The notes beneath the pieces are model-generated. The model was not told where the DNA came from and did not search any database. It saw only the letters and a list, made by a program, of their open reading frames with translations. Both the position numbers and the translations under genes were made by a program. Below are positions 2,777-38,902 of a DNA stretch of 64,000 nt, in pieces. The first letter of the stretch is position 1. Every line of letters starts with the position of its first letter. This DNA comes from Mobula hypostoma (lineage: Eukaryota), in assembly GCF_963921235.1 (NCBI RefSeq), contig NC_086097.1, positions 123,754,001 to 123,818,000 of the forward strand. The letters are read 5' to 3'.

Positions 2777-3155
2777 CTACCATTTAGTCATTATTAATCT
2801 CTTCAAGCATTCTTTAATGTTTATTGAAGACACCAGTATAAGGCACTGCTTCTTGAAGGGGTATTTCAACTTGTATCCATGGTTTGACATATCTTCTAGC
2901 GTTTGTTTTATAATTTCATCTTTGTAGAGTTCAGCGACGTCCAATGAATTGTGTGAGATATTAAACTCAACAGAAAGATTGAGGTTGTTGCTAACCATAG
3001 TCACATCTTTTTCAATGCCGTGGGGCAGATTATACTTCTTCATCTTTAAGATGTCAATTATAGCTTGATCGTAGCAGGACACTTGTAAAGTCACTTTTTG
3101 CTTAGTGGCTTTGTATCTGATAGATACCGAACATGGACTGTTGCACGGGTTCCAG
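2777..3155 (-). CDS. Terminal coding exon of a putative uncharacterised small secreted protein, nested antisense in a TMX3 intron
   Basis: Acceptor ttcttgtttttgtag|C at 3156/3155. The frame (C)TGG AAC CCG... is open for 125 codons (WNPCNSPCSVSIRYKATKQKVTLQVSCYDQ...NLSVEFNISH...LEDMSNHGYKL...TKW*). It is not transposon-like and is in phase with the 9439-9470 exon. Confidence 0.55.
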
Positions 3156-3989
3156 CTACAAAAACAAGAATTGTTTTATAGGCATAGGTATTTAAAGGCA
3201 ATTGAAATTACTTGACTCTGTTTCAAAGTTAGTTAAATGTACTATTCTCAACCTACTTTTCAAAATTTTGAAGTAATTTTATTATCAAAGTGCATATATA
3301 TCACCATTACTAGCTTGAAATTCAGGTTCTTAAAGACATTAATAAATTGTACTTAGCAAAGATTGTGAATAACTATATATCACAAAATCTAGATTTTATC
3401 TAGATTGCAATTGAATTATTTGGAAGAAACACAAATGGAAATAGATATATGAAATTGGGGAAGGAAACAAAAATGTGAAAAATTAGATAAATGGCTGCAA
3501 TTATTGGAATTAAAATAATATGGAATATTCAAGCAGCATCTTGTAAGTTGGTGAGGAATGAGTAAGTGTATGGATATGGCCTTTCATCAGAATTGGCTAT
3601 TTCTGATGCAGATTAGAATGGTTGATCATCCAAGGTTGTTGAATTCAATGTAAGACATAGATGGAAGTGGGAAGAGACTGGAAAAGGTAAGACATTGGAG
3701 CAGAATTAGGCCATTCTTTAGCAGAAGTGTCCAAGAAATGATCCTCAACTATGTATTGAGCTTTGGATACCAATGACAGAACTGGCAGTGGTATGGAGAC
3801 TTAAAGGGACAGATGACAGGAAGCTAATAGGCCACCCTTGGAGACAAAATGGTTATTTGCATTTGGTTTCTCTAACATCAGTATTGACTTCAAATTGTCA
3901 CAAAAGCAGCACCCTTGCACTATTCCGTACCTTTTCTGATTCAATGTTTCCCACATTGTCACTGACCTTTTACATCATAGTCTTATAGT

Positions 3990-4990: not shown

Positions 4991-5729
4991 AAAGTGCAAT
5001 GTAAACTTGTTATCAAAGTACGTATATACCTTGAGACAAGCTGTGCAACTAAAAAGTAAAGCCACAAGAAAGGAGCATCCATCATTGAGGACACCCCCCC
5101 CCCCCACTATCTCTCTTTGTGCTACTACCATTGGGCAGGAGTACAGGAGCCTTAGGTTCCACACCACCAGGTTCAGGAACAGTTATTACCCCTCAACCAT
5201 CAGGCTCCCGAACTAGCGTGGATGACTTCATTCACATAAATTCTGAACTGATTTGACACCCTGTGGACTCACTTTCAAGTACTCTGCAATTCATGTTCTT
5301 AGTTTTTATAATTTATCTGTTTTTGCACATTGGTTGTTTTTTAGTCTTTATAGTTTTTTTTCATAAATTCTATTGTATATCTTTAATTTCCTGTAAATGC
5401 CTGCAAGAAAATGAATCTCAAGATGGTATGTGGTGACTTATACAGACTCCAATAATAAATTTAGTTTGCACTTTTAAGTTCCAGTGTTTTCTTTCTCTCT
5501 CCTTTTGTTGATCGCTTTCAGTTTACCTTGCTTCCTGACATGTCAGCTGTAGTTAACAAGCCTTCACCATCCTGACTTAGCTAGCACCAACACCTTCTGT
5601 GTCACTCGGTCTTTTTTTGTCTCCACCCTATCCTTGGTCTCCCATCATCAATACCCTGGCCTCAACAGAACTAGGAAAAATTATCAGACTCTTGGGATGC
5701 AATCTGACCTATAGAGTATCTCCTGCATC

Positions 5730-7940
5730 ACACATCAAAGTTGCTGGTGAACGCAGCAGGCCAAGCAGCATCTATAGGAAGAGGCGCAGTCGACGTTTCA
5801 GGCCGAGACCCTTCGTCAGGACTAACTGAAGGAAGAGTGAGTAAGGGATTTGAAAGCTGGAGGGGGAGGGGGAGATGCAAAATGATAGGAGAAGACAGGA
5901 GGGGGAGGGATAGAGTCGGGAGCTGGACAGGTGATAGGCAAAAGGGGATATGAGAGGATCATGGGACAGGAGATCCGGGAAGAAAGACGGGGGGGGGTGA
6001 CCCAGAGGATGGGCAAGAGGTATATTCAGAGGGACAGAGGGAGAAAAAGGAGAGTGAGAGAAAGAATGTATGCATAAAAATGAGTAACAGATGGGGTACG
6101 AGGGGGAGGTGGGGCCTAGCGGAAGTTAGAGAAGTCAATGTTCACGCCATCAGGTTGGAGGCTACCCAGACGGAATATAAGGTGTTGTTCCTCCAACCTG
6201 AGTGTGGCTTCATCTTTACAGTAGAGGAGGCCGTGGATAGACATGTCAGAATGGGAATGGGATGTGGAATTAAAATGTGTGGCCACTGGGAGATCCTGCT
6301 TTCTCTGGCGGACAGAGCGTAAATGTTCAGCAAAGCGGTCTCCCAGTCTGCGTCGGGTCTCACCAATATATAAAGGGCCACATCGGGAGCACCGGACGCA
6401 GTATATCACCCCAGTCGACTCACAGGTGAAGTGATGCCTCACCTGGAAGGACTGTTTGGGGCCCTGAATGGTGGTAAGGGAGGAAGTGTAAGGGCATGTG
6501 TAGCACTTGTTCCGCTTACACGGATAAGTGCCAGGAGGGAGATCAGTGGGGAGGGATGGGGGGGACGAATGGACAAGGGAGTTGTGTAGGGAGCGATCCC
6601 TGCGGAATGCAGAGAGGGGGGGGAGGGAAAGATGTGCTTAGTGGGATCCCGTTGGAGGTGGCGGAAGTTACGGAGAATAATATGTTGGACCCGGAGGCTG
6701 GTGGGGTGGTAGGTGAGGACCAGGGGAACCCTATTCCTAGTGGGGTGGTGGGAGGATGGAGTGAGAGCAGATGTACGTGAAATGGGGGAGATGCATTTAA
6801 GAGCAGAGTTGATAGTGGAGGAAGGGAAGCCCCTTTCTTTAAAAAATGAAGACATCTCCCTCGTCCTAGAATGAAAAGCCTCATCCTGAGAGCAGATGCG
6901 GCGGAGACGGAGGAATTGCGAGAAGGGGATGGCGTTTTTGCAAGAGACAGGGTGAGAAGAGGAATAGTCCAGATAGTTGTGAGAGTCAGTAGGCTTATAG
7001 TAGACATCAGTGGATAAGCTGTCTCCAGAGACAGAGACAGAAAGATCTAGAAAGGGGAGGGAGGTGTCGGAAATGGACCAGGTAAACTTGAGGGCAGGGT
7101 GAAAGTTGGAGGCAAAGTTAATAAAGTCAACGAGTTCTGCATGCGTGCAGGAAGCAGCGCCAATGCAGTCGTCGATGTAGCGAAGGAAAAGTGGGGGACA
7201 GATACCAGAATAGGCACGGAACATAGATTGTTCCACAAACCCAACAAAAAGGCAGGCATAGCTAGGACCCATACGGGTGCCCATAGCTACACCTTTAGTT
7301 TGGAGGAAATGGGAGGAGCAAAAGGAGAAATTATTAAGAGTAAGGACTAATTCCGCTAGACGGAGCAGAGTGGTGGTAGAGGGGAACTGATTAGGTCTGG
7401 AATCCAAAAAGAAGCGTAGAGCTTTGAGACCTTCCTGATGGGGGATGGAAGTATATAAGGACTGGACATCCATGGTGAAAATAAAGCGGTGGGGGCCAGG
7501 GAACTTAAAATCATCGAAAAGTTTAAGAGCGTGAGAAGTGTCACGAACATAGGTCGGAAGGGATTGAACAAGGGATGATAAAACAGTGTCGAGGTATGCA
7601 GAAACGAGTTCGGTGGGGCAGGAGCAAGCTGAGACAATAGGTCGGCCAGGACAGGCAGGTTTGTGGATCTTGGGTAGGAGGTAGAAACGGGAAGTGCGGG
7701 GTGTGGGAACTATAAGGTTGGTAGCAGTGGATGGGAGATCCCCTGAGCGGATAAAGTCGTTGATAGTGTGGGAGACAATGGCCTGGTGCTCCTTAGTGGG
7801 GTCACGATCGAGGGGTAAATAAGAGGAGGTATCCGTGAGTTGTCGCTGTGCCTCGGCAAGGTAGAGGTCAGTACGCCAGACTACAACAGCACCCCCTTTA
7901 TCAGCGGGTTTAATAATAATGTTAGGATTAGTGCGGAGGG
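5730..7940 (-). mobile_element. Penelope-like retroelement (RT + GIY-YIG endonuclease), 5'-truncated, with 3' pseudo-LTR
   Basis: ORF 6439-7473 has the RT motifs MDVQSLYTSI, GVAMGT and RYIDD; the frame stays open upstream to ~7940 (IIIKPADKGGAVVV). ORF 6116-6442 has the GIY-YIG signature (VIYCVRC..C..LYIGET.RRL..RF.EH). There is a frameshift near 6610. Confidence 0.95.
5788..5823 (-). ncRNA. Minimal type I hammerhead ribozyme motif in Penelope pLTR
   Basis: Minus strand reads AGUC CUGACGA A GGGU CUCG GCCU GAAA CGUC GACU: intact core boxes, stem I AGUC/GACU, stem II, palindromic ACGU in place of stem III, and a GUC cleavage triplet. Confidence 0.8.
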
Positions 7941-8067
7941 AGTATATTCTGTTTCAGATACAGACAGGTCCTGAATCAAGGGAAGGTTACATTCCTCAAA
8001 TAATCCATATCAGAGTTTTCTGTAATACACAAAAAGCATGGATGTAGTTTCACATATGAGAAATTAC

Positions 8068-8617: not shown

Positions 8618-8669
8618 TACATTAGGTAAAAAAGAAAAGACTCAGAACTAACAAGAAACCACTTTTCTA

Positions 8670-9438: not shown

Positions 9439-9470
9439 TAGGAAAGAAGCAGAAGGGTGATGAGCAACAT
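9439..9470 (-). CDS. Putative first coding exon (signal peptide) of the nested small secreted protein
   Basis: ATG at 9470 gives MLLITLLLLS+TA, followed by the donor |gtaagtttt at 9438. There are in-frame stops upstream of the ATG and a candidate acceptor ttcccctag| at 9536/9535. A phase-2 junction to 3155 gives TA|C = Tyr. Confidence 0.5.
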
Positions 9471-10885: not shown

Positions 10886-11661
10886 ATAATGTTTTTTTTA
10901 GGAGGCTTATTTTTTAAGCACTTGTACACCAAACTTGACTTCAGCAACTCTGCAGCTCATGTTTTCAGTGTATTTGTTTACTTTTTAAAATTATTTTCAT
11001 GATTTGTCCTCTTCGCACATTGGATGTTTGTTGATCTTTGTTATGCATGGTTTCTCGTGGATTCTAATGTATTTCTTTATTTTCCTGTGAGTGCCTGCAA
11101 GAAAATGAATCTCAAGGCTGCATATCTTACACATACTTTGATAATAAACTTACTTTGAACTTTCTGTGTATGTGTGAAAAATCTGCTCTGTTTTGCTGCC
11201 TCCTCTTTCCTTTTAAATTTGTGGTCTGAACTTAAAATTGACAGTAATCAAGAGCTAGGAGTTTCCTTCTCCAAATTATTGTTTGTGTTACAGTATCTTC
11301 AAGTAAAGGAAAGTTGAAAATGTATATCATACCCATGTACTTAACCTCGGTTTTGCACTTGCTCGTTATTTGTTGTTATGGATAAAGTTTCTTTTTCCTG
11401 TCATTCACACTCTTTCATTGTATTTGAGCTGGAGGGAGGTTCCAATCCAAATACGTGCAGAACAATAATGTATAGAGAAATACTTGTTTATTCTTGTTTA
11501 CTCTGCTTTTGGCTTTTATTCAAAGGTTGTCATTTCGTTAAGCTTGAAATCCTCACATGATTTTCTGGAAGCAGCTCATTTGAGTCACCAAACATTCCTT
11601 GTAACCTATCACACCAATACTTTCTAAAACAAAATTCAGTCCAAGTAATCCTATGTTATTA

Positions 11662-13590: not shown

Positions 13591-14951
13591 TCTCAGCACA
13601 CTTGTGTAATCTTTGTGCATCAGTGGTGTGACCACACTAAGTGATGCTTGCTTTAAAGAATTCACAGTTGTCACGTTGTATTCTGAGCCCATAGTCTTCT
13701 AATCTTTTCAATACTGTCTTGAGATTTTGGAGCACCCCACTAAGGAGCACCAGGCCCTTGTCTCCAACACCATCACCAACCTTATCCGCTCAGGGGATCT
13801 CCCATCCACTGCCACCAACCTTATGTTTCCTACACTCCGCACTTCCCGTTTCTACCTCCTACCCAAGATTCACAAACCTGCCTGTCCAGGTAGACCTATT
13901 GTCTCAGCTTGCTCCTGCCCCACCAAACTCATTTCTGCATACCTCGACACTGTTTTATTCCCTATTGTTCAATCCCTTCCCACCTATGTTTGTGACACTT
14001 CTCACGCTCTGAATTTTTTCAATGATTTTAAGTTCTCTGGCCCCCACCGCCTTATTTTCACCATGGATGTCCAGTCCCTATATACCTCCATCCCCCACCA
14101 GAAAGGTCTCAAAGCTCACCGCTTCTTTTTGGATTCCAGACCTAACCAGTTCTCCTCTACCACCACTCTCCTCCGTCTAGTGGAATTAGTCCTTACTCTT
14201 AATAATTTCTCCTTTGGCTCCTCCCACTTCCTCCAAACTAAAGGTGTAGCCATGGGCACCCGTGTGGGTCCTAGCTATGCCTGCCTTTTTGTTGGCTTTG
14301 TGGAACAGTCCATGTTCCAAGCCTGTACTGGTACCCATGCCCCACTTTTCCTTCGCTACATCGACGACTACATTGGCGCTGCTTTCTGCACGCATGCTGA
14401 GCTCGTTGACTTCATTAACTTTGCCTCCAACTTTCACCCTGCCCTCAAATTTACCTGGTCCATTTCCAACACCTTCCTCCCTTTTCTTGATCTTTCTGTC
14501 TCTATCTCTGGAGACAGCTTATATACTGATGTCTACTACAAGCCTACGGACTCTCACAGCTACCTGGACTATTCCTCTTCCCACCCTGTCTCTTGCAAAA
14601 GTGCCATCCCCTTTTTGCAATTCTCCGTCTCCGCCACATCTGCTCCCAGGATGAGGCATTTCATTCCAGGACAAAGAGATGTCCTCCTTTTTTAAAGAAA
14701 GGGGCTTCCCTTCCTCCACCATCAACTCTGCTCTCAAACGCATCTCACCCAATTCATGCACATCGGCTCTCATCCCATCCTCCCGCCATCCCACTAGGAA
14801 TAGGATTCCCCTTGTCCTCACCTACCACCCCACCAGCCTCCGGGTCCAACATATAATTCTCCGTAACTTTCACCACCTCCAATAGGATCCCACCACCAAG
14901 CACCTCTTTCCCTCCCCTCCCCTTTTGCTTTCTGCAGGGATCACTCCCTAC

Positions 14952-15201
14952 GACATGTGTTGTGTCCTTGAGCAAGGCATTTAATCACACATTGCTCTGC
15001 GACGACACTGGTGCCAAGCTGTATGGGTCCTAATGCCCTTCCCTTGGACAACATTGGTGTCATGGAGAGGGGAGACTTGCAGCATAGGCAACTGCTGGCC
15101 TTCCATACAACCTTGCCCAGGCCTGCGCCTTGGAGAGTGAAGACTTTCCAGGCGCAGATCCATGGTCTCGCAAGACTAATGGAAGCCTTTATTATTTATT
15201 T
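14952..15201 (+). mobile_element. 5'-truncated tRNA-SINE (CORE-like box) inserted into Penelope
   Basis: tgtgtccttgagcaaggc box and (ttat)n tail, with the TSD actccctac at 14943-14951 and 15202-15210. Same family as 40261-40553. Confidence 0.85.
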
Positions 15202-15965
15202 ACTCCCTACACGACTCCCTTGTCCATTCGTCCCCCACATCCCTTCCCACCAATCTCCCTCCCGGCAATTATCCTTGTAAGCGGAGCGAGTGCTACATCT
15301 GCCCTTACGCTTCCTCCCTTACCACCATTCAGGGCCCCAGACAGTCCTTCCAGGTGAGGCGACACTTCACCTGTGAGTCGGTTAGTGTGATATACTGCGT
15401 CCTGTGCTCTCGGTGCGGCCTTCTGTATAGTGGTGAGACCTGACGCAGACTGGGAAACCGTTTCGCTGAACACCTACACTCTGTCTGCCAGAGAAAGCAG
15501 GATCTCCCAGTGGCCACACATTTTAATTCCACGTCCCATTCCCATTCTGTCATGTCTACCCACGGCCTCCTCTACTGTCAAGATGAAGCCACACTCACGT
15601 TGGAGGAACAACACCTTATATTCCGTCTGGGTAGCCTCCAACCTGATGGCATGAACATTGATTTCTCTAACTTCCATTAATGCCCCTCCTCCCCTTCTTA
15701 CCCCATCCCTTATTTATTTATTTATTTATTTATTTATTATTTTCTTCCCTTTTTTCTCTCTCTGTCCCTCTCACAATAACTCCTTGCCTGCTCTCCATCT
15801 TCCTCTGGTGCTCCCCTATCTCCCTTCTCCAGCTCTGTATCCCTTTTGCCAATCAACTTTCCAGTTCTTAGCTTTTTCCCTCCCCTTCCTGTCTTCTCCT
15901 ATCATTTCGGATCTCCCCCTCCCCCTTTCTTTCTTCCAAATCTCTTACTATCTCTTCTTTCAGTT

Positions 15966-16001
15966 AGTCCTGACGACGGGTCTCGGCCCGAAACATCGAC
16001 T
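15966..16001 (+). ncRNA. Minimal hammerhead ribozyme motif (variant)
   Basis: AGUC CUGACGA C GGGU CUCG GCCC GAAA CAUC GACU. The ACGU palindrome has changed to ACAU. Confidence 0.6.
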
Positions 16002-16059
16002 GTACCTCTTCCTAGAGATGCTGCCTGGCCTGCTGCGTTCACCAGCATTTTGTGTGTGT

Positions 16060-16880
16060 TCCTTGGTATTTTGGAGATGTTACTCATCATCCTCACTGGT
16101 AACAATGATGTCATCCAGGTTACACTGAGTAGACTTGCAGAACCTGGTCCATAGCTTTCTGCCAGAGTGCATGTATAGATGCTACTCCAAAAAATAAGCC
16201 TATTATAGCAATAAAGCCTTTGTGAGTGTTTATGGTGAGAAACATTTAGATTTCTTCCCACTCCATCTGTAGATAGGCCTCAGCTAAGTCCACTTTGCTG
16301 AATTATTTTCCTCCAGAAAGATATCCTCTATCCTGGGTAGAGTGATTTCAAACTACTTCCATTAATGATGGGGACCTTAAAATCATCACAGATGCTAACA
16401 GACACATTCTTCTTGGCTACTGGGACCACTGGCATTTCCCTTTGTCTCCACTCAACCTTGGAAAGAATTCCTTCAACCTCTATGCAATCTAGCTCACTGA
16501 CTACTTTGTCACGGATGGAATAACTAACCTGATGGGCTTTATGAAACTTGGGTGTGGAATTTTCATTTAACACTATTTTACCCTTGTTATGGTTGAGTTT
16601 TCCAATGCCATCCTTGAACACTACCGTAGCATCATCTTAATTTGGTTTCAGTTAGCTCTGTTACAGAAGATGTTGCATGCAAATAGTAGCTGGATCTCCA
16701 TTCAAGTTATAGTTGTCTCAACCACTTATGGCTCCACAATGTTGGAGCCATTTTTGAATGCTTTCCAGTAAGATTCCACAAACTAAACAATCTCTCAGTG
16801 CATCATTACTAAACTGACTATTCACAGACAATCTCTTCAAATCAGCTAAGTAAGCTGAAATGGACTTTCATTTTGGTTCT
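16060..16880 (-). mobile_element. Gypsy LTR-retrotransposon internal fragment (gag/RT N-terminus), degenerate
   Basis: ORF 16328-16621 (PKFHKAHQVSYSIRDKVVSELD..EGILSKVE..PVVPVAKK..SICDDFK) matches the Gypsy RT start. Gag-like SAYLADLKRL..ALRDCLVCG lies near 16770-16860. Confidence 0.8.
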
Positions 16881-17149: not shown

Positions 17150-17400
17150 GAACAGAGATGGGGAGGAATTTCTTTAGCCCGATGTGAATCTGTTGAATTC
17201 ATTGCCAGAGACATTGTGGAGACCAAGTCATTGGATATACTTAAAGTGGTGATCGATAGGTTCTTGATTAGTAAGGGTGTCAAAGGTTATGGGTGAAGGT
17301 AGGAGAATGGAGTTGAGGGATAATAAATCAACATGATGGCATGTGTAACAAATTTAATTGCCCAAATGGCTTAATTTTGTTCTTATGTTTTTATGGTGTT
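17150..17400 (+). mobile_element. CR1 LINE 3' end
   Basis: ggaggaatttctttagcc...gatcgataggttcttgattagtaagggtgtcaaaggttatggg, a CR1-type 3' end. Confidence 0.75.
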
Positions 17401-18054
17401 GTGTAGGGCCGGGTGCACAGATCAATTTCCCTGCTGTCTTTTCTGGTTTGTTGTTTATTTTGTGATACCAGCATAGCGATAGAAGTGATGCTGAGGTCAG
17501 TAAATACTAGAATTGGCTTGGATGTCGCCTCTCTTCTCCAAATTCCGTCTTGATCTTGCTGTAGCTTCACATATTTCTGTAGCTATGTAGTGCCGTACTC
17601 CTGTTTGGTGCAAGGAATCCTGTGGAAAATATTTGTTATTTAATTACTCGGATCCTTTTGGAAAAAGCAAGTTAGAGTAGAAGTGAGTGAAAATCCACCA
17701 CAAATATTCTAACTAAATACTGCCCATTGTGTGAATACAGTTTAATTTACCTCAAAACTGGATTTGAGTTAATTACTTAAAGAAGAGTTTTTATTTTGTT
17801 TAACATCAGAATGATATATTTTAATGTGTTTTATTTTTGTTCTCCATTTACAGTGTTTGGTCTTGATTTAAATTAGCCTTTTTCTTTATTATGGAATTCT
17901 ACAATAGAAAACGACCCTTACTGCTCATAAACATGAGATTCTGCAGATGCTGGAAATCTAAAGTAACACACACACACACACAGGTGCTATATATTTGACC
18001 CTTTTTTGCCACCCTCTCCGATAGTTAGTAGGAACTTAAGCATTTGTGTTGAGA

Positions 18055-21000
18055 ATCTGCAGAGAGCCGATGGGGTAACATCTTTTTGAACTTGCTCCTA
18101 CTTTATCTATCTTCTTGTCTCCTACCAGTTTTTTGAAACCTTATTATAAATCTCAATATTGCTCTATTATGTCTATGAGAAAGACTAAAGCCTCTGCAAA
18201 AGAAAAAGAAGATGATTCTCCAACCACTTTGGAATCAATTGGAGATTTCCTTAAAAAGCAAAGAACAGAGCTTTCTGAGAAATTTCAACACCTTAACGTC
18301 AAGTTGGACCCTATTCAGCAAACTAATCGAACATGATAAGCGAATTAAGGACAATAAAGAAACTTTGTCGATACTGGAAGTGGACTTAGAAGACATGAGT
18401 AAGCTCTGTAAAAAATTATCATTATCTAATGAAAAATTAACAAAGAACATTACCAAGCTGGAAAGCAGAAGCAGAAGAACAATCTACGTATTCTGGGTCT
18501 TGAAGAATCAATTCAAGGTGCCCACCCCAAGGAGTTCTTTGCAAGCTTTCTGAAGCAGCTATTCCCTGATTTATTGCCGTCTGTGCCCAAGTTGGACCAC
18601 GCCCACCGGTCACTGGCCCCAAAACCAAAGTCGAGGGAGTGACCTAGGTCGGTTATTTTATGTTTTCATGAATTTCATACTAAGGAGCTTTTAATCCATC
18701 ATACCCATCGAGTAGGAATGATTGATTACAACAGGAAGATGATCAGATTCCTGGAAGATTATACGCCAGAGGTTATGGCTGAACATGCCAAGTATAAAGA
18801 GGTTATGTCGCTGTGTTATAACAAAGGGGTCTTAGAATCGTTCAGAAAAATGGTGTGCAGAAATGGCTGGGATCGGTTGAACACGCACAGAAGTTTTTGA
18901 AAGCAGAAGACTAATTACGTTCTATCTCTTACAAGAGCAATTATCTTTTTAATGTTGGATAGAATAAGGTTTTAATAAACTTAAGTTTTGACCGTTTATA
19001 TATCTTGCTTTTTGATATTTTCTTTGATTTTCTTTTATTACTTCACTTTTTTTTGAGGTTTTTCTATATTTTTTTGAATTTGTTAAAATGAATCCTCTTA
19101 TGTTTTGGATTTCTGATCTAAGTTTATTTTGTCTGTTTTCTCTTGGTAGGAACATAATAACCTTGAATGATTGGAGTTTTGTCAGCAGGATTTCTTTGGG
19201 AGGGTTGTCTTTAGGGATTAGCATGCCGACTGTCCTTTGGCTGGCTTTTTGACTTTGGGAGGGAGAGGGGGTGGGGTTTCTTTTTTCTTTTTTCTTTTTT
19301 CTCTGGAAGCTGGGTTGGGCTACCATCCAAATTTTCTGTTTGAGTACCGTATTTTATGGTTCGTTCTCTGGTTCTAATAATTTATGGTCAGATCTTTTAA
19401 CTCTTCTGTTAATTAGTATATAAAATGGATCGAAATATTAATTTACTTATTTTTAATGTGAAAGGGTAAAATCATCCTGTGAAATGGAATAAGATTTTTG
19501 CTTATATTAAAAAGTTAAGGGGCCCCATTATTTTTCTACAAGAAACGTATGTACGTAGTTGTGACAACGCACGCCTTTTTAATCGGTGGAGGGGTTTACA
19601 ATTTCATTCTTCATTCAGAGCAAAATCTCGAGGGCTCTTGATTTTTATAGACAATACAATTTCTTTTGTTCAACATAAAGTTGTCTCTGACCCTAATGGG
19701 CAATTTGTCATACTGTCAGGGAAACTAGATAATAAATTAATTGTATTTGCTAATATGTGCAATGTGGATGACCCGGGAATTTTTGAGCATTTCTTTTCAT
19801 TCTTGCCAGATTTGAGTCTTTATTCTTTAGTGATGGGAGGAGATTTTAATTGTTGTCTAGACCCAGTACTAGATTATTCTTCTCCTAAATCAGCCACACC
19901 TAATAAATCAGCTTTATTTATTCAATCATTTCTAATAAAATGTGATATTGTTGATGTCTGGCATTTTTTTCACCCGGCAGAAAGGGAGTATTCATTCTTC
20001 TCTCATGTCCATCATTCCAGTACCAGGATTGGATTTTTTTTTATTGATAGTGATTCCATTAGTTCGATCCATTGAATATAAAGAAATAGCTGTATCCGGC
20101 CACACTCCTGTATTTCTATCTTTAAATCTTCCTGATTTCACTCATATGAACAGACCCTGGCATTTTAATTTAACTTTGTTATCTGATAAGGACTTTCTAA
20201 AATTCCTGGAGAATCAAATTACTCTTTTTTTTGAAGAAAATGCGTTGGAAGAGACTTCTAGTCTTATCATTTGGGACGCTTTTAAGGCATATATTAGAGG
20301 ATGAATTATCTCCTATACTGCATATATTAAGAAAAAAGCTAATAAAGAGAGAACTGACTTAGTTAATCAATTAAAACAATTAGACCAGAAATATGCTTTG
20401 GCACCAGGCCCTGAACTATACAAAAGATTTACTGAAATTAAAACTAAATATGATCTTCTTATAATGTATCCAATTGAAAGCCAACTTTTAAAAGATGGAA
20501 GCTAATTCTATATACATGGAGAAAAAAACTGGTAAACTATTGGCTAATCAATTGAAGACCTTTATAGCTAAATGGCAAATTAAAGAAATTCGCAAAACCA
20601 ATGGTGATTTGACAACTGACCATTTCGAAATAAATGACACTTTGAGAAAATTTTATTCTAAACTGTATAGTTCAGATTTTGTTAATGATAATACTGCAGT
20701 GAACAAGTTTTTAGACCAATTAAATATTCCTGGACTTTCAGTTGCTAATCAAAAGCAGCTGGATCAACCTATTTCTCAGGAGGAAATCACTAAGGTTATA
20801 TGTTCATTGCATTCTGGAAAATCTCCAGGACCTGACGGATTTTCTGGAGAATTTTATAAGGCTTTTTCTTCATTGCTTATACCTTATTTATGCTCTACCC
20901 TTACTGATTCCTTCAAGGTGGGTAGGTTGCCACAGTCTTTTTATGAAGCTTCTATTTCGCTTATTCTTAAAAAGAATAAGAATCCCACTGAATGCTGTTC

Positions 21001-23735
21001 ATAGAGACCAACCTCTTTACTCAGTGTTGATGCTAAGATCCTATCTAAAGTTTTGGCCCGTAGACTCGAGAATATTAGACCTTCTATAGTATCTGATGAT
21101 CAGACAGGATTTATTAAAAATCGATATTCCTATTTTAATATACGGCAATTGTTAAATGTTATGCATTCTCCATCCAAGGAAGTATCGGAATGTGTGATTT
21201 CTCTGGATGCGGAGAAGGTTTTTGACCGAGTTGAATGGAACTACCTATTTAAAACCTTAGAAAAAAATTTAATATTGGGCCCAATTTTAACTTTGGATTA
21301 AATTACTTTACTTATCTCCCTCCACTCGGGTCCTTACTAACTTTCAGAATTCTAAACCAATTGAACTCCAACGTGGAACCAGACAAGGATGGCCGTTGAG
21401 CCCTTTGCTTTTTGATTTGGTATTAGAACCCTTAGCAATTGCCTTTGAAGAGTCTAAAGATATCACCGGTATCTTAAGGAAAGGTACTATTCATAAAGTT
21501 TCGCTTTATGCTGATGACCTATTGCTTTTTATATCTAATATTACAACTTCGTTGCCCTCTATGTTTCTTTTAATGACTAATTTTAGTCAGTTTTCAGGAT
21601 ATAAGTTGAATTTACATAAGAGTGAATTGTTTCCTTTAAATAATTTGATACCAACCAATGTTAACCTTCCTTTTAAAATTGTAAGAAAACAATTTACATA
21701 TTTGCGTGTAACAATCATTAAGAGTTATAAAGATCTATTCAAAGAAAATTTTCTAACCTTAGTGAATTATGTGAAAAAGAGGCTTTTTAATTGGTTTCCT
21801 CTCTCTTTATCATTAATTGGTCGGATTAATTCTATTAAAATAAATATTTTACCTAAATTTATATACCTTTTTCAAGCTGTACCTGTTTTTATTCCTAAGT
21901 CTTTTTTTGATTCTTTCAATTTGATTCTTTCTACCTATATATGGAAGAACAGAAAACCCCGATTAAATAAAGCCCATCTTCAAAAAATTAAAAAGAATGG
22001 AGGCCTTGCTCTACCCAATTTTAGGTTATATTATTGGGCAATTAACATACGAAATCTTACGTTCTGGTTATATTATATTAATTGTGAGGATTGTCCAATA
22101 TGGGTCTTTCTGGAAGCCAACTCTGTTACGAAATTTTCTATTAGATTAGATTAGATTATGAGGACATGCAGTCCTCTTTTATTGTCATTTAGTAATGCAT
22201 GCGTTAAGAAATGATACAGTGTTCCTCCAGAATGATATCACAGAAACACAAGACAAACCAAGACTAAAAAAACTGACAAAAAACACATAATTATAACATA
22301 CAGTTACAACAGTGCAAAGCAATACCATAATTTGATAAAGAACAGACCATGGGCACGGTAAAAAAAGGTCTCAAAGTCTCTTGAAAGTCCCATCATCTCA
22401 CACAGACGATAGAAGGAAGAGAAACTCTCCTCCTGCCATGAACCTCCAGCGCCGCAAACTTGCCGATGCAGCACCCTGGAAGCATCCCACCACAGCTGAC
22501 TCTTGAGTCCGTCCGAAAACATCGAGCCTCTGACCAGCCCTCCGACACCAAGCACCGAGCACCATCTCTACTGAGCGCTTCGACCCCGGCCCCGGCAACA
22601 GGCAATAGGCAAAGCCGAGGATTTGGGGCCTTCCCCTCTGGAGATTCTCAATCACAGTAGCAACGGCAGCGAAGCGGACATTTCAGAAGTTTCTCCAGAT
22701 GTTCGTCTGTGCTTCTCACGTCTGTCTCCATCAAATCAGGATTGTGCACGGTACCTACTTAACAAATATGATATCATTTTGCGTCACGCCGCCATCTTCT
22801 CCTCCCTACCTCTTCTCAGATCCTCTCTTCCTTTATCTTTAAATAAATTAACTGACAGTTTGGTGGTTAAACAACTTTGAGGATCTGGCTCCAGTTTAGA
22901 AAACATTTTGGTTTACTGAGATTTTCTCTTTCTAGTCCTATTTTTTCTAATTTTTTAAACCATCTATGACCGATTTGTCTTTTAGAGAATGGGATAGATT
23001 AGGCATTAAACAATTTCAGGATCTGTCTGATGGAGGGATTCTTTCTTTTGAGCAGTCCTCAGTGAAATACCTATCAAATACCCACATTTTTTGATATCTA
23101 CAGATTAGAGATTTTTTAAGATCCAAACTACATATATTTCCTACCAGCCTGGATAAGGACATAATAGATGTAATTTTTAATTTGAAACCTTTTGATAATG
23201 GCTCAATATCTTCTATTTATGGTCTGTTGTTTGGACTGAAAATGGCTCCTTTAGACAAAATTTAAAAAGATTGTGAAAAGGATTTACAGACTTCATTATC
23301 TGATGAGACCTGGAGGGCTATTTTCAAAATGGTTAATTCTTCATCATTATGTACTCGTCAGTCCCTCCTACAATTTAAAGTGGTACATAGGGCTCATATG
23401 TCTAAAGACAAGCTCTCTCGTTTATATCTCCTTATTGTGACTGATGTAATAATGAAGAGGCTTCATTAATTCATATGTTTTGGCCATGTTCGAGCCTTGA
23501 AAAATATTGGAAAGATGTATTCCAAACTTCTTCTGTACTTTTTAAAGTTAATTTTAAGCCCAATCCTTTGACTGCCTTATTTAGTGTTGTTGAGGAAAGA
23601 GCTGTAATTTTGGAGCCTTCTCATTTGCGGGTATTGGCTTTTATTTCTCTTATGGCGGGGGGGGGGAGTCTTGCTTAAATGGAAGGAGGTTGCCCCCCCC
23701 CCACACGTGTTCAATGGTTATGCAATGTTTATTGA
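18055..23735 (+). mobile_element. Near full-length L1 LINE (ORF1 + ORF2), inactivated by stops and frameshifts
   Basis: ORF1 remnants from ~18169 (coiled coil, LESRSRR, IRFLEDYT). ORF2 from ~19425 has the APE endonuclease (IIFLQET, GGDFN) and RT (GKSPGPDGF, SLDAEKVFDRVEW, SPLLF, SLYADD), with a Cys/His-rich C-terminus near 23430-23490. Confidence 0.93.
22141..22807 (-). mobile_element. Short non-autonomous retroelement with (TCTAA)n tail inserted in L1 ORF2
   Basis: Interrupts L1 ORF2. It has (ttaga)n at 22141-22157 and a GC-rich 5' end (ggaggagaagatggcggcg on the - strand). Confidence 0.7.
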
Positions 23736-25550: not shown

Positions 25551-26553
25551 TGTGATGGTATTGGATTTGCTGACTGCAAAGTTCTAAACTCAGGCAAAGA
25601 CTTTAAGTCCTATATGATATAAATAGCTACAAGTACTCTTACTAAAGGAAGATTATACTGTAACTACCCAATCATCAAAGACTAGTTCACTCACCCGGTT
25701 ATTCTCCATGGCCAAGCTTAGCTGCCAATACCTACTATTCAAGCAATGGGTCCTCTCTTCCTACCAAGGAGAAGATACTTGCAGCTAACAGAGTAGTTTA
25801 AAACGCAGTTTATTTATTTTCAGTGCACACATTTAAATCCAAACAACATTCTTAAAACACACAGAGAATTTTTATTTTAAGCATTTCCAAATTACAAACC
25901 ATTTCTAAAACACAAAGCATTTCAAAAGCATAAAGGATTGCCAAAACACAAGTATAATTTCTATAAACTGAAAGGACATACCAACAATGCAAATGAACAA
26001 ATCCTCTGTCACACAAACCGAAGCCAGGGGATCATCTTCTGGCACTTCAAGCCGTGTATGATATTTCTGCAGAAATCCTTTTTACAGAAACGGTCTACAT
26101 GTTTGTTGGAGACATAACTTTACAACCTTTGCTAGGAACTACCCTCTGAGTACATATAACTCTCAACTATAAACACATAGTCATTTGATATGCTAAATGA
26201 TATTATCCATATGTAAGAATCCTTGAACTAAGGAAGTTTGTCAGCTTGTCTGTTTTGATACAAGCCAAATTAAATAACTCAGTGTCTTATACTGCACCTC
26301 TTTGAGCAGCAAGACAGGATGCAAGGAACCAGCAAGTCTGTGCTATAAACAGACATTGTTTGCAAAGCTGTGTTTTTAACTTCAAGTTGATTAATGATTG
26401 CCATTTACATAGTTAGAACTAAAGACTGGCTCCCATTTACGACCAGAAACTAAACAGTTGTTTGATCTTGACAAGTGGCAGCTGCTGTGTTTAGAGAGCG
26501 AGCTTTGCAAAAAGCCAAGAGGTCCACTGGTTCACAAAGTGAATAGTCATCAC
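25551..26553 (-). mobile_element. Probable solo LTR (~1 kb)
   Basis: TG...CA termini with an imperfect terminal inverted repeat (tgtgatggtatt / aatagtcatcaca), inserted into the Tc1-type element. AATAAA on the - strand at 25809-25818. No clean TSD seen. Confidence 0.55.
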
Positions 26554-27018: not shown

Positions 27019-27519
27019 CTACTTGGTCAATAGAATGGCCTTGTCTTTCAGGAGCTGCTTAACATCCCCATTCCACGTTGTTCTGGAAGGCAGCTGGTAG
27101 CCTCTTGACGTTGCATCCAACATGAGTCCAATTACAAAGGGCGTCCAGTAGTCACAGTTTTGCAACGAAGATGATCGACACAAAACTTTCAGTACAAATT
27201 GGATACTGTCATTTGTGGTTGAGAGCGTAGTTTGGATTTGTTTGATTTGAGTATTATCAAAATACGATTTTTCTGACCAATATTGTAGCAGCATGTGATT
27301 GCAACAAGTTACCCGGACAACAAACATGGAACTTTCCACATCGTCTTCATGCACTGTGATGGAAAGATGGTCAGTGTTGTGTGATTGAGCCATGAGGTGA
27401 ACCGGTGGAAATACCTGTGCCTGTAAAACATCAGTGTTTAGAATTGTCTGGCCAACGAAAAGTAGGATCAAATGGAATAATTTCCGGATTACAATCAGAG
27501 ATGACCAATACGTTAGCAT
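27019..27519 (-). CDS. Putative uncharacterised protein ORF/exon, apparent paralogue of the 2777-3155 exon
   Basis: Stop-free, non-repeat frame of 166 aa from ATG 27519, with hydrophobic RKLFHLILLFVGQTIL near the N-terminus. There is an internal acceptor gatgttttacag| at 27421/27420. It shares V[ST]C, NxS[VI][EQ]F and GYxL with similar spacing. Confidence 0.5.
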   Translation of the reverse strand: MLTYWSSLIVIRKLFHLILLFVGQTILNTDVLQAQVFPPVHLMAQSHNTDHLSITVHEDDVESSMFVVRVTCCNHMLLQYWSEKSYFDNTQIKQIQTTLSTTNDSIQFVLKVLCRSSSLQNCDYWTPFVIGLMLDATSRGYQLPSRTTWNGDVKQLLKDKAILLTK

Positions 27520-29698: not shown

Positions 29699-31308
29699 CA
29701 GTGGTATGCAAAAGTTTGGGCACCCCTGGTCAACATTTTTGTTACTGTGAATAGTTAAGTGAGTAGAAGATGAATTGATCTAAAAAAGTCATAAAGTTAA
29801 AGATGAAACATTCTTTTCAACATTTTAAGCAAGATTAGTGTACTATTTTTGTTTTGTACAATTTTGGAGTGAAAAAACGAAAGGAGCACCATGCAAAAGT
29901 TTGGGCACCCCAAGAGATTTGAGCTCTCAGATAACTTTTACCAAGGTCTCAGAGATTAATTAGCTTGTTAGGGCTATGGCTTGTTCATAGTCATTGTTTG
30001 GAAAGGCCAGGTGATGCAAATTTCAAAGCTTTATAAATACCCTGATTCCTCAAACCTTGTCCCAACAATCAGCAGCCTTAGGGTGCTAAGCAGCTGCCTA
30101 GCACCCTGAAAATTAAAATAAATGATGCCCACAAAGCAGGAGAATGCTATAAGAAGATGACAAAGCGTTTTCAAGTCGCCATTTCCTCAGTTCGTAATGT
30201 AATTAAGGAATAGCAGTTAACAGGAACGGTGGAGGTCAAGTTGAGGTCTGGAAGACCAAGAAAACTTTCCAAGAGAACTGCCAAGAGGATTGCTAGAAAG
30301 GCAAATCAAAACCCCCGTTTGACTGCAAAAGACCTTCAGGAAGATTTAGCAGACTCTGGAGTGGTGGTGCACTGTTCTACTGTGCAGCGACACCTGCACA
30401 AATATGACCTTCATGGAAGAGTCATCAGAAGAAAACCTTTCCTGCGTCCTCACCACAAAATTCAGCGTCAGAAGATTGCAAAGGAACATCTAAACAAGCC
30501 TGATGCATTTTGGAAATAAGTCCTGTGGACTGACGAAGTTAAAGTAGAACTTTTTGGCCTCAGTGAGCAAAGGTATGTTTGGAGAAAAAAGGGTGCAGAG
30601 TTTCATGAAAAGAACACCTCTCCAACTGTTAAGCATGAGGATGGATCAATCATGCTTTTGGGCTTGTGTTGCAGCCAGTGGCACAGGGAACATTTCACTG
30701 GTAGAGGGAAGAATGAATTCAATTAAATACCAGTAAATTCTGGAAGCAATCATCACACCGGCTGTAAAAAAGCTGAAGATGAAAAGAGGATGGCTTCTAC
30801 AACAGGATAATGATCCTAAACACACCTCAAAATCCACAATGGACTACCTCAAGAGGCGCACGCTGAAGGTTTTGCCATGGCCCTCACAGTCCCCTGACCT
30901 AAACATCATCAGGAATCTGTGGATAGACCTCAAAAGAGCAGTGCATGCAAGAATCTCACAGAACTAGAAGCCTTTTGCAAGGAAGGATGGGCGAAAATCC
31001 CCCAAACAAGAATTGAAAGGCTCATAGCTGGCTACAGAAAGCATTTACAAGCTGTGATACTTGCCAAAGGGGGTGTTACTAAGTGCTGACCATGCAGGGT
31101 GCCCAAACTTCTGCTTCAGGCCCTTTTCCTTTTTTGTTATTTTGAAACTGTAAAAGATGGAAATAAAAAAGTGATCTTGCTTAAAATATTAAAGAAATGT
31201 GTCATCTTTAACTTTATGCCTTTTGGAAATCAGTTAATCTTTTACTCGCTTAGCTATTCACAGTAACAGAAATTTTGACTGGGGTGCCCAAACTTTTGCA
31301 TGCCACTG
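29699..31308 (+). mobile_element. Full-length IR/DR-type Tc1 DNA transposon (1610 bp)
   Basis: Ends cagtggtatgcaaaagtttgggcacccc and ggggtgcccaaacttttgcatgccactg. TIRs of ~210 bp carry inner direct repeats (~29890 and ~31097). TA on the left, CA (mutated TA) on the right. Confidence 0.95.
30077..31088 (+). pseudogene. Tc1 transposase pseudogene
   Basis: RSGRPRK, WTDE, QQDNDPKH and WPSQSPDLNIIRNLW motifs (catalytic E replaced by R). The start codon is lost, there are stops at 30211 and 30517, and there are frameshifts. Confidence 0.92.
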
Positions 31309-33339
31309 CATATAAACATACCTCAAGTTGTTTTGGTCCCCCACAGTTTGCAGCTTTTTGTCATTTGGAAAATGTTCTTTTTAGGTCCAGATGTAGATTT
31401 CACAATTCAAAGTCATTTTTGACATTATAATTTTGGTCAATTCTACAATGGGATAAATTTCTTTCAGCATAAGATGTGATCAACAGAAAAGATTACATAC
31501 ATAATAAACCTACAATTTGATAATTATGCACACCCAGTAGATGATTCACTTAAAGATTTAGACACAAGCTGTAGTTTACTCTCTAGAAACCAATCTTGGG
31601 TTGAATCAAACTGTTTGCAACATTTGTCATTCTCAAATTCTGTTGATGGTTTACCTTTCTATCTTCTGTCACCATCTTAATGGGTAGTTTCCTGCCTTAG
31701 TACATCTGCTCAGAAATGCTTGTTCACGAACTTGTCATTGTTAGACATATATTCCAGTCCTGCCCTAGACACCCTGCTGCTGCTTCACTCTGCAAATCTT
31801 GGCATATTCAGATATTTGCAGCTGGTTCTTTCCTCCGTTGAGTTCTAATTGGCTGTCCCTACTTAACTGTGATGGTTTCCAATTGTGCAGGATTTCAGAT
31901 TTAACATTCACGTACCTGCAGCCAATCCTCCTTCCCCTGCCCACCACCCCCCACCTACACACCCTTTGAATTCTCTGAAAAAGACTACTAACCCTCTGTC
32001 CCCTACTTTATAAAATCTCTGATCAAATGAAGGAGTCCAAAGATCATTAATCCAACAGTATTTCCCCTCTTACCCAATGGAGAAGAACCAGGCTGCTTTT
32101 ACAACTTAACTTCAGTTTTAAAATGTTTACATTTTATTTTGTCTAGTTTGAACCAACTCTCCAGAATCTCCTGTCTTTAAGGAACATTCATTTCTTATAT
32201 TATGCCAGCAACACCTACCGAACATCACGTCACAACCTTTCCCCCCTTCCTTTCCAGTCCTGATGAAGTATCTCAGTCCAAAACATTGACTGTTGATTCC
32301 TCTCCACAGATGCTGCCTGACCTGCTGTGTTCCTGCAGCATTTTGTGTGTACTACAACTGATCGTGTCTTTATTCCATATTCAGATATCTGTAATAGCAA
32401 ATTTGCTTTGCGTTTTTCCCTAGAATTTTTCTTTCCACCCATCCCCACAACCAAAGCCAGTTCAGTCAGTAGTACCTTTACTACCTGCCTGGTTAATGTA
32501 TTTGGCACGGATCAGCCATCAAACATTTGACTACAAAAACCTTAAATCGCACCCACTGCCTTTTGGGACTTTAGTCTTCCCATAAAATATTTGAAGTAAT
32601 TATCTTTCAAAAGTTAGTTGTGGAACTACCTACCTGATTAATTCTGACCGTTGAGACTACTTTTTTATCCCACTTCACCAATCAGGAGTTGACTCAACCC
32701 GACAGTACGTTGGCTGGTTTTACTCTGTTGGCATGAAGTGAGCAAAAACACTACTTCCTTTCCAGTTCTGTATGTGCACTGGCCAATGAGGTTCATCCAT
32801 GAGGAGGGCAGACTTCTGTAAAACTGAAAGAGAAATTTTTGTTGGTCTCTGTATACTTGAACATGTAAAGTATGAGCTGTGCAAATTCAAATTTACAAAA
32901 CCCAAGTATTAAGAGATGCCTTTTGAATAGCTTAGAAGGCCTATTTTGTATATGTCATGACCTAGATAAACTGATAAAGTTTAGGTTTATCTTTGGAACA
33001 ATAGAAACAGGAGAGTGTCATTCAGTTCGTTGTCATTCAGTGATCATGGTTGGTCTTGACCCTAACTTTACTCGCTAACTTGTATTTGGTAATTCCCTCA
33101 ATATCTTTGGATAGCAATAACCTGTTGATTTAATATAAATATTGATTGACCTTATCCACTGCTTTGTTTGTACAAAAGTACCCTTCTTCTGTGACCCTTG
33201 GTGTGTGTAAGTATTTAATTTTTGTTGATTGCCTAGTTCTAAAAGTTTTATTCATTTTTCCGGACTCCCCTACAAAGACAAAAACTTCTCTTTATCTTGT
33301 CCGTTCCTGTGACCCTTAAGCTTTTTTTTCAAGTGCCTT

Positions 33340-35042: not shown

Positions 35043-35214
35043 TAAAAACAGATCTCTTTGAGCATGCAACATTAGAAATGATGTTTTTCAATTGTTTTTT
35101 TTAATTTAACATTAATCATTTTTGAGCAGGTTTTCTAAAATGCTTCATTTATTTCAATCCGTCTCTGTTTTACTTTTATTCATAATAAACAATGAATGCC
35201 CAGAAATAAGCAAC

Positions 35215-38075
35215 AGGACTGATAATAAGTGATTTTAATTTTCCACGTATTGACTGGGACTCCCATATTGTAAGAGAGCTTGTGAGATGTATTGAGAAAA
35301 GTTTACTTAATCGGTACATAGAAGTCCCGACTAGAGAGTGTGATACAGATATCCTGTTAGGGAATGAGAAAAGGTAGAAGATAGAAGTTTATGCAAGGGA
35401 AGACTTTGCATCTAGAGATCATAATGCCATTAGTTTCAAAGTAGTTATGAAAAATGATAGATCAACAGCAGATGCCATCTCTCTGGCCCTATATTCCTCC
35501 TTAGAACACCAGGAGAATAAAGAGGCATATGTAAGGTTCCTTTTCATTGACTACAGCTCTGCCTTTAATACCATCATTCCAAATAAACTGATTTCAAAGC
35601 TCTGGAACCTGGGCCTTAGCACTCAGATCTGCAGCTGGATCTTCAACTTCCTCACAGACAGGTCCCAGGCTGTAAAAATAGGGGACAAGCTCTCCTCTAC
35701 AATCGCTGTGAGCACCGGTGCCCCACAAGACTGTGTACTCAGCCCCCTGCTGTACTCACTGTACACCCATGATTGTGTTGCCAAGTTTCCATCAAACTCA
35801 AATATAAGTTTGCTGGTGACACCACAATTGTAGGCCATATCTCGAGTAATGATGAGTTTGAGTACAGAGAGGAAATTAAGAACCTGGTGGCATGGTGCGA
35901 AGACAATAACCTATCCCTCAACGTCAGCAAGACAAAGGAATTGGTTGTTGACTTCAGAAGGAGTAGCGGACCGCACGACCCCATTTACATCAGTGGTGCG
36001 CAAGTGGAACAGGTCAAAAGCTTTAAGTTCCTCGGGGTCAATATCACAAATGACCTGACTTGGTCCAACCAAGCAGAGTCCACTGCCAAGAAGGCCCACC
36101 AGCGCCTTTACTTCCCGAGAAAGCTAAAGAAATTTGGCCTGTCCCCTGAAACCCTCACTAATTTTTACAGATGCACCGTAGAAAGCATTCTTCTAGGGTG
36201 CATCACAACCTGGTACGGAAGTTGTCCTGTCCAAGACCGGAAGAAGCTGCAGAAGATCGTGAACACAGCCCAGCACATCACACAAACCAATCTTCCGTCC
36301 TTGGACTCACTTTACACGGCACGCTGTCGGAGCAGTGCTGCCAGGATAATCAAGGACACGACCCACCCAGCCAACACGCTTTTCGTCCCTCTTCCCTCCG
36401 GGAGAAGGCTCAGGAGCTTGAAGACTCAAACGGCCATATTTGGGAACAGCTTCTTTCCAACTGTGATAAGACTGCTGAAAGGATCCTGATCCGGATCTGG
36501 GCCGTACCCTCCAAATATCCAGACCTGCCTCTCGGTTTTTTTGCACTGCCTTACTTTCCCTTTTCTATTTTCTATTTATGATTTATAATTTAAATTTTTA
36601 ATATTTACTATTGATTTGTACTCCAGGGAGCACGAAGCGCAGAATCAAATATCACTGTGATGATTGTACGTTCTAGTATTAATTGTTTGGCGACAATAAA
36701 GTATAAAGTATCTGGTCCTTGAGTTGAGATTCTGAATTGGAGAATGGCCAATTTTGATGGTATGAGAAAGGATCTGCCATGTTTGGATTGGGACAAGTTG
36801 TTTTCTGGCAAATGTGTATCTGGTTCGTGGGAGACCTTCGAGAGTGAAATTTTGAGAGTACTGAGTTTGTATGTTCCTGTCAGGATAAAAGGCAAGAATA
36901 ACAGGTTTATGGAGCCACGGTTTTCGAAAAACGAGGTGCATAGCAGGTATAGGCAGGCAGGAACAAATGAGGGACTCAAGGAGTATAAGAAATGCAAGAG
37001 GACACTTAAGAAGTTCAGTCACTTTGTATTCAAGATAAGATAGTAAATTGGATTAGACATTTGCTTCACGAAAGAAACCAGAGGGTGGTTGTCGATGGTT
37101 GTGTCTCTGACTGTAGGCCTGGAACTTGTGATGTGCTGCAGGGATCGGTGCTGGATCCGTTGTTGTCATCTTTATCAATTACCTGAATGATTATGTGTGT
37201 TAGACTGGGGTGTAGTGGACAATGAGGAAGTCTAAGAAAGCTTGCAGTGGGACCTGATCCAGCTGGAAAAATGAGCTGAAAATGGCAAATGGGATTTAAT
37301 GCAGACAAGTGTAAGGTGTTGCACTTTGGGAGGATCATCCGGGTGGGTCTGACACAGTGAGCAGTAGGGCACTGAGGAGTGTGGTAGAACAGAGGGATCT
37401 GGGGATACAGGTACATAATTCCTTGAAAGTGGCATCACAGGTAGATGGGGTCGTAAAGAAAGTTTCTGGCACATTGGCCTTCAGGAATCAATGTACTGTT
37501 TCAGGAGTTGGGATGTTACGTTGCTGAGGCCAAATTTGGAGTATTGTGTCCAGTTTTAGTCACCTACCTATAGGAAAGATGTAAATATAATTGAAAGAGT
37601 GCACAGAAATTTTACAAGGATGTTGTAATCTTGAGGACCTGAGTTATAAAGAAATGGGCTTAAGGTACTGAGTTATAGGGAAAGATTGAATGGGTTCAGA
37701 CTTTATTCCCGTGAAGAAAGAAGACTGAGGGGAGATTTGATAGAGCTATACAAAATTATGAGCAGTAGAGCTAACGTAAATACAAGAAGGCTTTTTCCAC
37801 TGAGGTTAGGTGAGACTGCAACTAGAGGTCGTGGTTTAAGGTTGAAAGTTTAAAGGGAACATGAGGGATAACTCAGAGGGTAGTGAGAGTGTGGAACGAG
37901 CTGCCAACGCAAGTGGTAGATGCAGGGACGATCTCAACACTTGAGAAATTTGGATAGATTCATGGATGGGGTGAGGTATGGAGGGCTAAGGTCCAGGTGC
38001 AGGTCGATGGAACTAGGTAGATTAATGGTTCGGCTCAGACTGGGTATCTTAGTGTGCTGTGGTATTCTATGACTG
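35215..38075 (+). mobile_element. Degenerate CR1 LINE ORF2 interrupted by a Rex1/Babar insertion
   Basis: Endonuclease remnants at 35220-35460 (DFNFP.IDW). It resumes at 36711 (ANFDGMRKDL), with RT remnants through to the 3' UTR at ~38070. Confidence 0.8.
35460..36710 (+). mobile_element. Rex1/Babar-type LINE, 5'-truncated, relatively young
   Basis: ORFs 35447-35833 ([23 protein letters not shown]) and 35773-36489 (LNVSKTKELVVDF, FYRCTVESIL). The tail is aataaagtataaagta. Confidence 0.9.
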
Positions 38076-38902
38076 TAATACCTCAGTTTTCCCTTTTAAA
38101 AGTACATATTTATTGTTACTAATTCATTCATCAATGATATTCTTTGCTCAAAATTACCATGGCAAGCGGGAAAATGTTTTAGAAAATTATCACCAGTTTG
38201 GACACACACTCTCCAGGAAGTTCACCACCTCTGGTCTTCTTAGGTGTATTTGACAATGGAGTATTGCAACCTAACCAAATGCCCTGAATATCCCAGCTTC
38301 TATTTCCGAACATATGGATGTTTGGAACATTGATATTATTTTTCCTTCTCTCATGTCTGAGCAGCTGAGGGTGAAGGGCTATTCCAGCCGAGATCAACAT
38401 AGAGTTCAAACAGAACCGTAGTTTTCTTTTTCTTAAACTTAGTAACAAGCGTATTTGACAACCCTGCAGCTGAGCACAATTTTTTTTCAAAGAATTAAAA
38501 TATGTTACTATTTTTACTATTAATCTTTGAGTTTGGTTATGGGCAAGGGCAAAGACACAGACTTGATAAATATTGAGAAAGAATTTACTAAGATATTAAA
38601 ATTGATAAATTAATGTCTGTGATAAAGAGTATTGTGTGCCATATGTGAAAGGCTAATCGGCCTTTTCCATTCCAATTTTCGTACATCCTCCTTGCTCACC
38701 TAAATCTTTATATTCTACCCTCATCTCGTCACCAAACAGGGCACCAAGCATTGAGAATAAGGTAGTATTTCATGCAGACCCAACATCTTTGATTAAGGAA
38801 GTAATGTTTAACTTATTCTCAACTTTTGTTTTAAGTTGTAATTGTGATGACTTGAGTTCATTGTCAAAACTGACCATACCAATCCAATTTTTCTACCCTC
38901 AG

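Follow-up and report, generated by a model that had tools for sequence, protein, structure and literature searches.

What is encoded on the minus strand of the oversized TMX3 intron of the ray Mobula hypostoma? An earlier note on this DNA, made from the letters alone, had picked out six non-repeat segments lying antisense to TMX3, and proposed that they are a tandem array of short genes for secreted proteins or else one decayed gene with repeated domain exons. The window analyzed here is the whole stretch of 64,000 nucleotides at C1 (NC_086097.1) 123,754,001-123,818,000, and the genome that was searched comprises 3.48 Gb. Positions are given in window coordinates. Two of the six segments, called open reading frames (ORFs) A and B below, are almost certainly real coding sequences, judging from the related proteins of other fishes. 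The earlier note had come upon something real but smaller and different in nature, namely two genes rather than six, with products that are probably not secreted. The features concerned are the following.

1 to 38902, plus strand: 3' part of the TMX3 intron, placed by exon anchors, donor, and acceptor; about half repeats.
27394 to 27420, minus strand: probable 5' untranslated region (UTR) of the B coding exon, 27 nucleotides from the candidate acceptor at 27420 to the ATG of B.
27019 to 27393, minus strand: ORF B, from ATG 27393 to TAG 27019, 124 amino acids, one domain; a conserved coding sequence.
25813 to 25876, minus strand: two AATAAA hexamers, candidate poly(A) signals, about 1.2 kb downstream of the B stop.
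3156 to 3185, minus strand: stretch rich in pyrimidines; its ATG at 3185 does not share the frame of A.
2777 to 3155, minus strand: ORF A, which stays open for 125 codons between a phase-2 AG and TAG 2777, with orthologues in catshark and elephant shark.

Evidence That ORFs A and B Are Coding Sequences

When a profile of both peptides was compared with 1.84 billion representative sequences, 11 matches were obtained at E<=0.001, comprising one unrelated lectin-kinase, three A-like proteins, and seven B-like proteins. Because the profile contained both peptides, these matches do not show that A and B are kin. The relatives are orthologues or co-orthologues about 30-59% identical across the whole domain, and a teleost B and a chimaera A used as queries each find only their own ray locus in the genome (E 8e-21 and 1e-18, respectively). 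At cut-off, Pfam gave no match in any of 67 B rows or 5 A rows. The proposal that unrecognised, probably related one-domain coding sequences, covered by no Pfam family, lie antisense in one very large TMX3 intron has held up.

The long frames of this DNA are only modestly above chance. In 400 simulations of the 14.8 kb of hand-picked unique blocks, a frame of at least 180 codons arose in nine, and two frames of at least 125 codons arose in 14. An origin of the ORFs from a transposon or other repeat is not supported, as each has one significant genomic locus and both remain unmasked in a 264-kb self-comparison. Rejected was a deaminase of the AID/APOBEC-like kind (SNAD4, NAD2), for which the Pfam scores were below cut-off (E 0.02-0.18) and came from the first 34 residues of a stop-to-stop frame; the Cys pair is not kept in the A orthologues, and the aligned members have no Pfam match. 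The conserved zinc motif of these deaminases is HxE plus PCxxC.

Conservation of the B Family

A search with a B profile (2080 candidates; length range searched, 64-371 amino acids) yielded 60 relatives at 32-43% identity. Those with names are all from teleosts, and include models from medaka (LOC144988184), eel (LOC118234378), and knifefish (LOC143483225 and LOC143518250), together with "hypothetical proteins" of catfish, notothenioids, and killifish. No named tetrapod protein is among the matches, and the taxonomic range of B is known only in part because most rows lack names. From cartilaginous fish to teleosts, B has been kept at a fixed length with 13 invariant positions. Most proteins of the family have 118-128 amino acids, and 46 of the 67 rows end at the same residue, among them the named models of medaka, eel, and one knifefish. 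This common end and the intact frames of both A and B speak against the earlier suggestion of one decayed gene.

Certain types of search were blind to this family. Single-sequence word-index searches with ORF B (99-315 and 234-2000 amino acids) gave no match, whereas the HMMER profile search succeeded. The ESM Atlas offered no usable match for ray B or for one teleost B, and searches of PDB sequences gave no match below E 0.1. The B stretch occurs in sequencing runs of five organisms. None of these runs is recorded as RNA and five of them are only guessed to be so, which is not evidence of expression.

In a tree of 24 B rows there are two teleost clades with one knifefish gene in each, on different contigs, and ray B and one knifefish row form long branches whose placement is unsure. 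The two clades would fit the teleost genome duplication. The tmx3a/tmx3b pair also fits that event.

At the position after the last residue of B, the parsed rows have either Trp (19) or a stop (18). A conserved splice donor at this point was considered and rejected, since the Trp-rich, frameshifting tails fit TGA read as Trp. Judged from these tails, the switching is likely due to a gene caller that reads TGA as Trp. Many unnamed entries of the B cluster run past the family stop into Trp and Trp-rich tails, inflating the length variation in the collection. A further observation concerns P0041, P0042, and P0058, three separate teleost B clusters that have in common a conserved stretch located about 70-80 codons beyond the B stop. 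It may belong to a 3' UTR under conservation, or be an exon that is read from the opposite strand or in a different frame; the ray region has no match to it.

The earlier note had presumed signal peptides and secretion, and for B this does not agree with the family. A conserved Met stands directly ahead of the domain, 3-9 residues before the first strand, in 60 of the 67 rows, and there is one conserved Cys column and no conserved Cys pair. Some named models, from eel, medaka, and Aldrovandia, are extended at the N-terminus, and by eye these have no obvious hydrophobic leader. Single-exon gene calls cannot reveal an upstream signal exon, and even so the B protein is very probably not secreted. 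Moreover, the N-glycosylation sequon that was thought to be a shared feature occurs in only two of the 67 B rows and two of the five A rows.

ORF A and Its Start

The named relatives of A are catshark LOC119972759 (XP_038666013.1), 49% identical, and elephant shark LOC103180501 (XP_007894587.1), 40% identical; two more, which are unnamed proteins from assemblies, are 58-59% identical. A different type of difficulty is presented by the beginning of this ORF. The frame has no in-frame ATG ahead of the first predicted strand, and the nearest ATG upstream, at 3185, does not share its frame. At the place that 3156 to 3185 takes up in the ray, the models of catshark and chimaera contain a Met in frame, along with a short run of hydrophobic residues by which secretion of A may be possible. 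Either an upstream exon supplies the start in the ray, or the start was recently lost, or the assembly is wrong. A candidate upstream exon can be read from the sequence at 11623-11557, with a GT donor and an ATG in the phase that would join it to A, so it may be that certain of the remaining sites are 5' exons and not copies in decay.

Kinship of A and B

The two peptides quoted in the earlier note are present in the sequence, and the distance from the Cys to the GY is correct at 66 versus 68 residues. Their direct likeness is not significant, with a BLASTP E value of 1.4 and shuffle p values of 0.09 (local) and 0.18 (global). Family profiles give a different impression. A hidden Markov model (HMM) of A scores ray B above the 99.9th percentile of the null, and when the whole intron is scanned with the A profile in a frameshift-tolerant manner, the best independent peak other than A itself is B; what appears as a peak at 2279 is where the match of A to itself tails off. 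In a profile-profile test against column shuffles, p is 0.0025-0.0075.

Several results weigh against this kinship. A comparison of A with B by hhalign was not significant, the B HMM does not single out the A rows, and reversed profiles score not far below the real one in the profile-profile test. The support is moderate and comes only from family profiles, the fold prediction covering B. On these comparisons of sequence, A and B are likely to be paralogous.

The Four Other Sites

All six of the segments had been described as starting at canonical 3' splice sites. An AG does precede each coordinate on the minus strand (3155, 11623, 17619, 27420, 32823, and 38463), but these acceptors are not distinctive, ranking 57, 240, 228, 214, 228, and 710, respectively, among the 1797 unmasked minus-strand AGs by a crude pyrimidine score of our own design. 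The four sites other than A and B are listed here.

11250 to 11623, minus strand: no significant family match; plain intron or a 5' exon is possible.
17400 to 17619, minus strand: no family match.
32600 to 32823, minus strand: no family match, and stops in all three frames.
38179 to 38463, minus strand: 94 open codons after a weak acceptor, with a borderline, nonsignificant B-profile score.

Weaker echoes of the A and B pattern had been claimed for these four, but none of 34 frame comparisons with either peptide reached p<0.05, and there is no match to either family HMM. In frameshift-tolerant scans, site 38463 scored 21.6 bits with the B profile (null top 22.7) and site 11623 scored 19.1 bits with the A profile (null top 20.8), so both are above the 95th percentile of null blocks and below the null maximum. 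What the four sites lack is support as members of the family, which does not make them noncoding, large protein collections not having been searched with them. Blank single-sequence searches at these sites would mean little, because such searches missed ORF B too. A birth-and-death array of six members is likewise not what is found: two members are detectable, each is single-copy in the genome, and both are old, because A has a chimaera relative and B has teleost relatives.

A 138-codon stop-to-stop frame is present at 38179-38595 (minus strand), 430 bp from a TMX3 exon. It is the second-longest frame in the unique blocks and has no Pfam match at cut-off.

Predicted Fold and a Possible Mode of Action

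The predicted fold of B is strand-strand-helix-strand-strand-helix-(strand)-helix-strand. A model made from the single sequence with AlphaFold2 was unusable, with a pLDDT of 35.5, and in a prediction of a four-copy complex, in which the alignment went unused, the fold of the chain itself is uncertain. A viral fold library gave no match at E<=0.001. Among the fold matches of B, most of the ACT-type rows end near residue 100, and propeller-blade proteins include the last strand. The predicted fold of B is likely the propeller-blade fold of GFRP, the C-terminal domain (CTD) of KCTD proteins, and Q4D6Q6. By analogy with these proteins, the chances that B forms a ring-shaped regulator appear about even. 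Readings of B as a fibronectin-III or SEA-like domain were rejected, both being absent from the fold matches.

We lean slightly toward the following explanation as a whole. ORFs A and B would be two old, single-copy antisense units that probably arose by tandem duplication before the split of chimaera and elasmobranchs, each encoding one domain of about 120 residues. The paralogous proteins would be cytosolic, would lack a BTB domain, and would assemble as rings of four or five subunits. Such rings could act as non-enzymatic modules for binding or allosteric regulation, for which GFRP on GTP cyclohydrolase I and the KCTD5 CTD on G-beta-gamma are precedents. The start of ray A would come from an upstream exon, or would have been lost recently.

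A broader proposal is more doubtful and is put forward tentatively. Jawed fishes might carry a second stand-alone ring family, like GFRP and the KCTD CTD and without BTB, of which A and B would be ancient subtypes, both nested antisense within one TMX3 intron. These might form homo- or hetero-rings that regulate targets allosterically or, as decoys, engage the partners of KCTD proteins, G-beta-gamma for example. The family might have persisted in lineages from chimaera to teleosts, and in tetrapods it might have disappeared or changed too far to be recognized.

Alternative Explanations

Some features of the ray locus would suit a single gene in this lineage, in which B is spliced to A (phase 2) to make a two-blade protein. 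ORF A lacks an in-frame ATG and begins behind an AG of phase 2, a phase-2 GT overlaps the final codon of B, and both ORFs share one strand and follow each other in the order that such splicing would need. However, this GT looks by eye like a weak donor, the family stop falls at that very residue in 46 of 67 B rows, named models included, and a search free of length limits gave no protein with both domains, which leaves such a gene quite improbable. The tandem array that the earlier note envisaged, in which small genes for secreted glycoproteins undergo birth and death and four copies have decayed, is very improbable. It could draw on the short hydrophobic stretch that opens the catshark and chimaera A models, on a faint strand-strand-"SC" echo of A at 11623 and 32823, on the scores of 38463 and 11623 above the 95th percentile of null blocks, and on the fact that an upstream signal exon would be invisible in single-exon gene calls. 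It is opposed by the conserved B Met, which directly adjoins the domain in 60 of 67 rows, the rarity of the sequon (2 of 67), the lack of a conserved Cys pair, the failure of all four sites to reach significance, and the absence of young copies from the genome.

Other alternatives accept that the sequences are coding. A and B might be real but unrelated genes, or B might be a generic ACT/ferredoxin-like alpha/beta domain that acts as a monomer or dimer, for example in binding a ligand or nucleic acid. This is unlikely, given that three profile tests favor kinship of A and B, and that the ACT-type rows mostly run out around residue 100, the last strand being included in the propeller-blade proteins. 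Finally, B might be functional while A is a recent pseudogene in the ray, its start lost by a frameshift, or appears so through an assembly error in a homopolymer run. In its favor, the ray ATG at 3185 does not fit the frame at a place where both the catshark and the chimaera model show a Met in frame, and the frame of the stretch upstream differs from the one used by P0001, a close relative. Yet 125 codons are open, without stops and 59% identical to P0001, and the AG at 3155 ranks best of the six sites. We consider this account rather unlikely for A, and it is compatible with the explanation preferred above for B, that of a cytosolic ring subunit.

The TMX3 Locus and Its Transposons

The giant intron inferred in the earlier note was borne out. 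On the plus strand it spans 57,045 bp, from -18142 to 38902, and the reading frame continues from one flanking exon into the other. The donor lies 18.1 kb before the window, and the acceptor side ends at 38902. Masking by self-comparison assigned 47.5% of this intron to repeats. The exons, which we take to belong to TMX3 on the basis of motifs, lie on the plus strand near -59615, -40264, -30943, -18185, 38903, 41223, 55524, 62141, and 66138. The description of the intron as giant is justified because the other gaps among the exons found are only 2-19 kb. The exon that closes the intron is as follows.

38903 to 39001, plus strand: TMX3 exon with EYEDGDLSSW..., placed by exon anchors.

The nested antisense placement of A and B accounts for the oversized intron, and nesting by itself is ordinary. 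In amniotes, another patchily retained gene at the TMX3 locus is TGM9, which encodes a transglutaminase and is restricted to certain lineages. It sits between TMX3 and DSEL in turtles, crocodilians, birds, and platypus (PMC11152450).

Several mobile elements share the window. An element with a reverse transcriptase and a GIY-YIG-like frame is present twice, at 5700-7950 (minus strand) and 13700-16060 (plus strand), the oppositely oriented copies being about 90% alike. A decayed element is located at 18000-23300 (plus strand), an element with 107-nucleotide inverted ends at 29700-31300, and a fragment at 16100-16640 (minus strand). From their motifs, we presume these to be Penelope-like, L1/Tx1-like, Tc1/mariner-like, and Gypsy-like, respectively. 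In a later TMX3 intron, the region 42545-49454 has inverted arms of 369 nucleotides (97%) and 111 nucleotides (92%) about 6 kb apart, with a 117-nucleotide hairpin at 46294-46537 between them, and looks like a young DNA transposon.

Relationship to Known Proteins

The A and B proteins are known in databases only as uncharacterized models, with no name and no Pfam family. The six LOC identifiers given above are named in no paper of the literature searched, although subscription papers and unseen supplements may say more. Searches on a gene nested in TMX3, BTB-less GFRP-like proteins, tmx3a/b synteny, and GCHFR paralogues returned nothing on this family. The catshark A gene goes unmentioned in the supplements of two studies of the catshark transcriptome, one scanned file being outside the search. 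A and B represent an unnamed fish family whose fold is probably already known and from which the BTB domain is absent. If the fold call is right, B would be a small gene open to testing in medaka, for which a named model exists.

Among proteins of similar fold, Q4D6Q6 of Trypanosoma cruzi and the trypanosome mitoribosome assembly-factor chains FQ/FR/FS/FT (6sga, 9hny) are 6-16% identical to B. Proteins of the Q4D6Q6 type are kinetoplastid-specific (PMC10899635), and no shared function can be inferred because the likeness is of fold alone. The KCTD family, in contrast, has an N-terminal BTB/T1 domain, which the A and B proteins lack and for which most of them, at 118-128 amino acids, have no room. 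The CTD exons of KCTD1/15 (PF20871) lie elsewhere in the genome. A KCTD gene for which A and B would serve as alternative last exons was considered and rejected, as there is no BTB near the locus: none of 49 genomic matches to BTB_2 (PF02214) is close, the nearest being about 6 Mb away, and only a very divergent or split exon could escape this search. There may also be a resemblance to KCTD7/14.

Compared with GFRP, B is about 40 residues longer and has no PF06399 match, and the true GFRP gene (GCHFR) was found at another locus, C1:96.63 Mb. If the fold call is right, B would be a BTB-free vertebrate relative of the KCTD CTD, and the only other stand-alone vertebrate example known to us is GFRP. 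On the same condition, B would provide a direct handle on the common origin that has been proposed for the GFRP and KCTD domains (10.1101/2024.06.14.599093).

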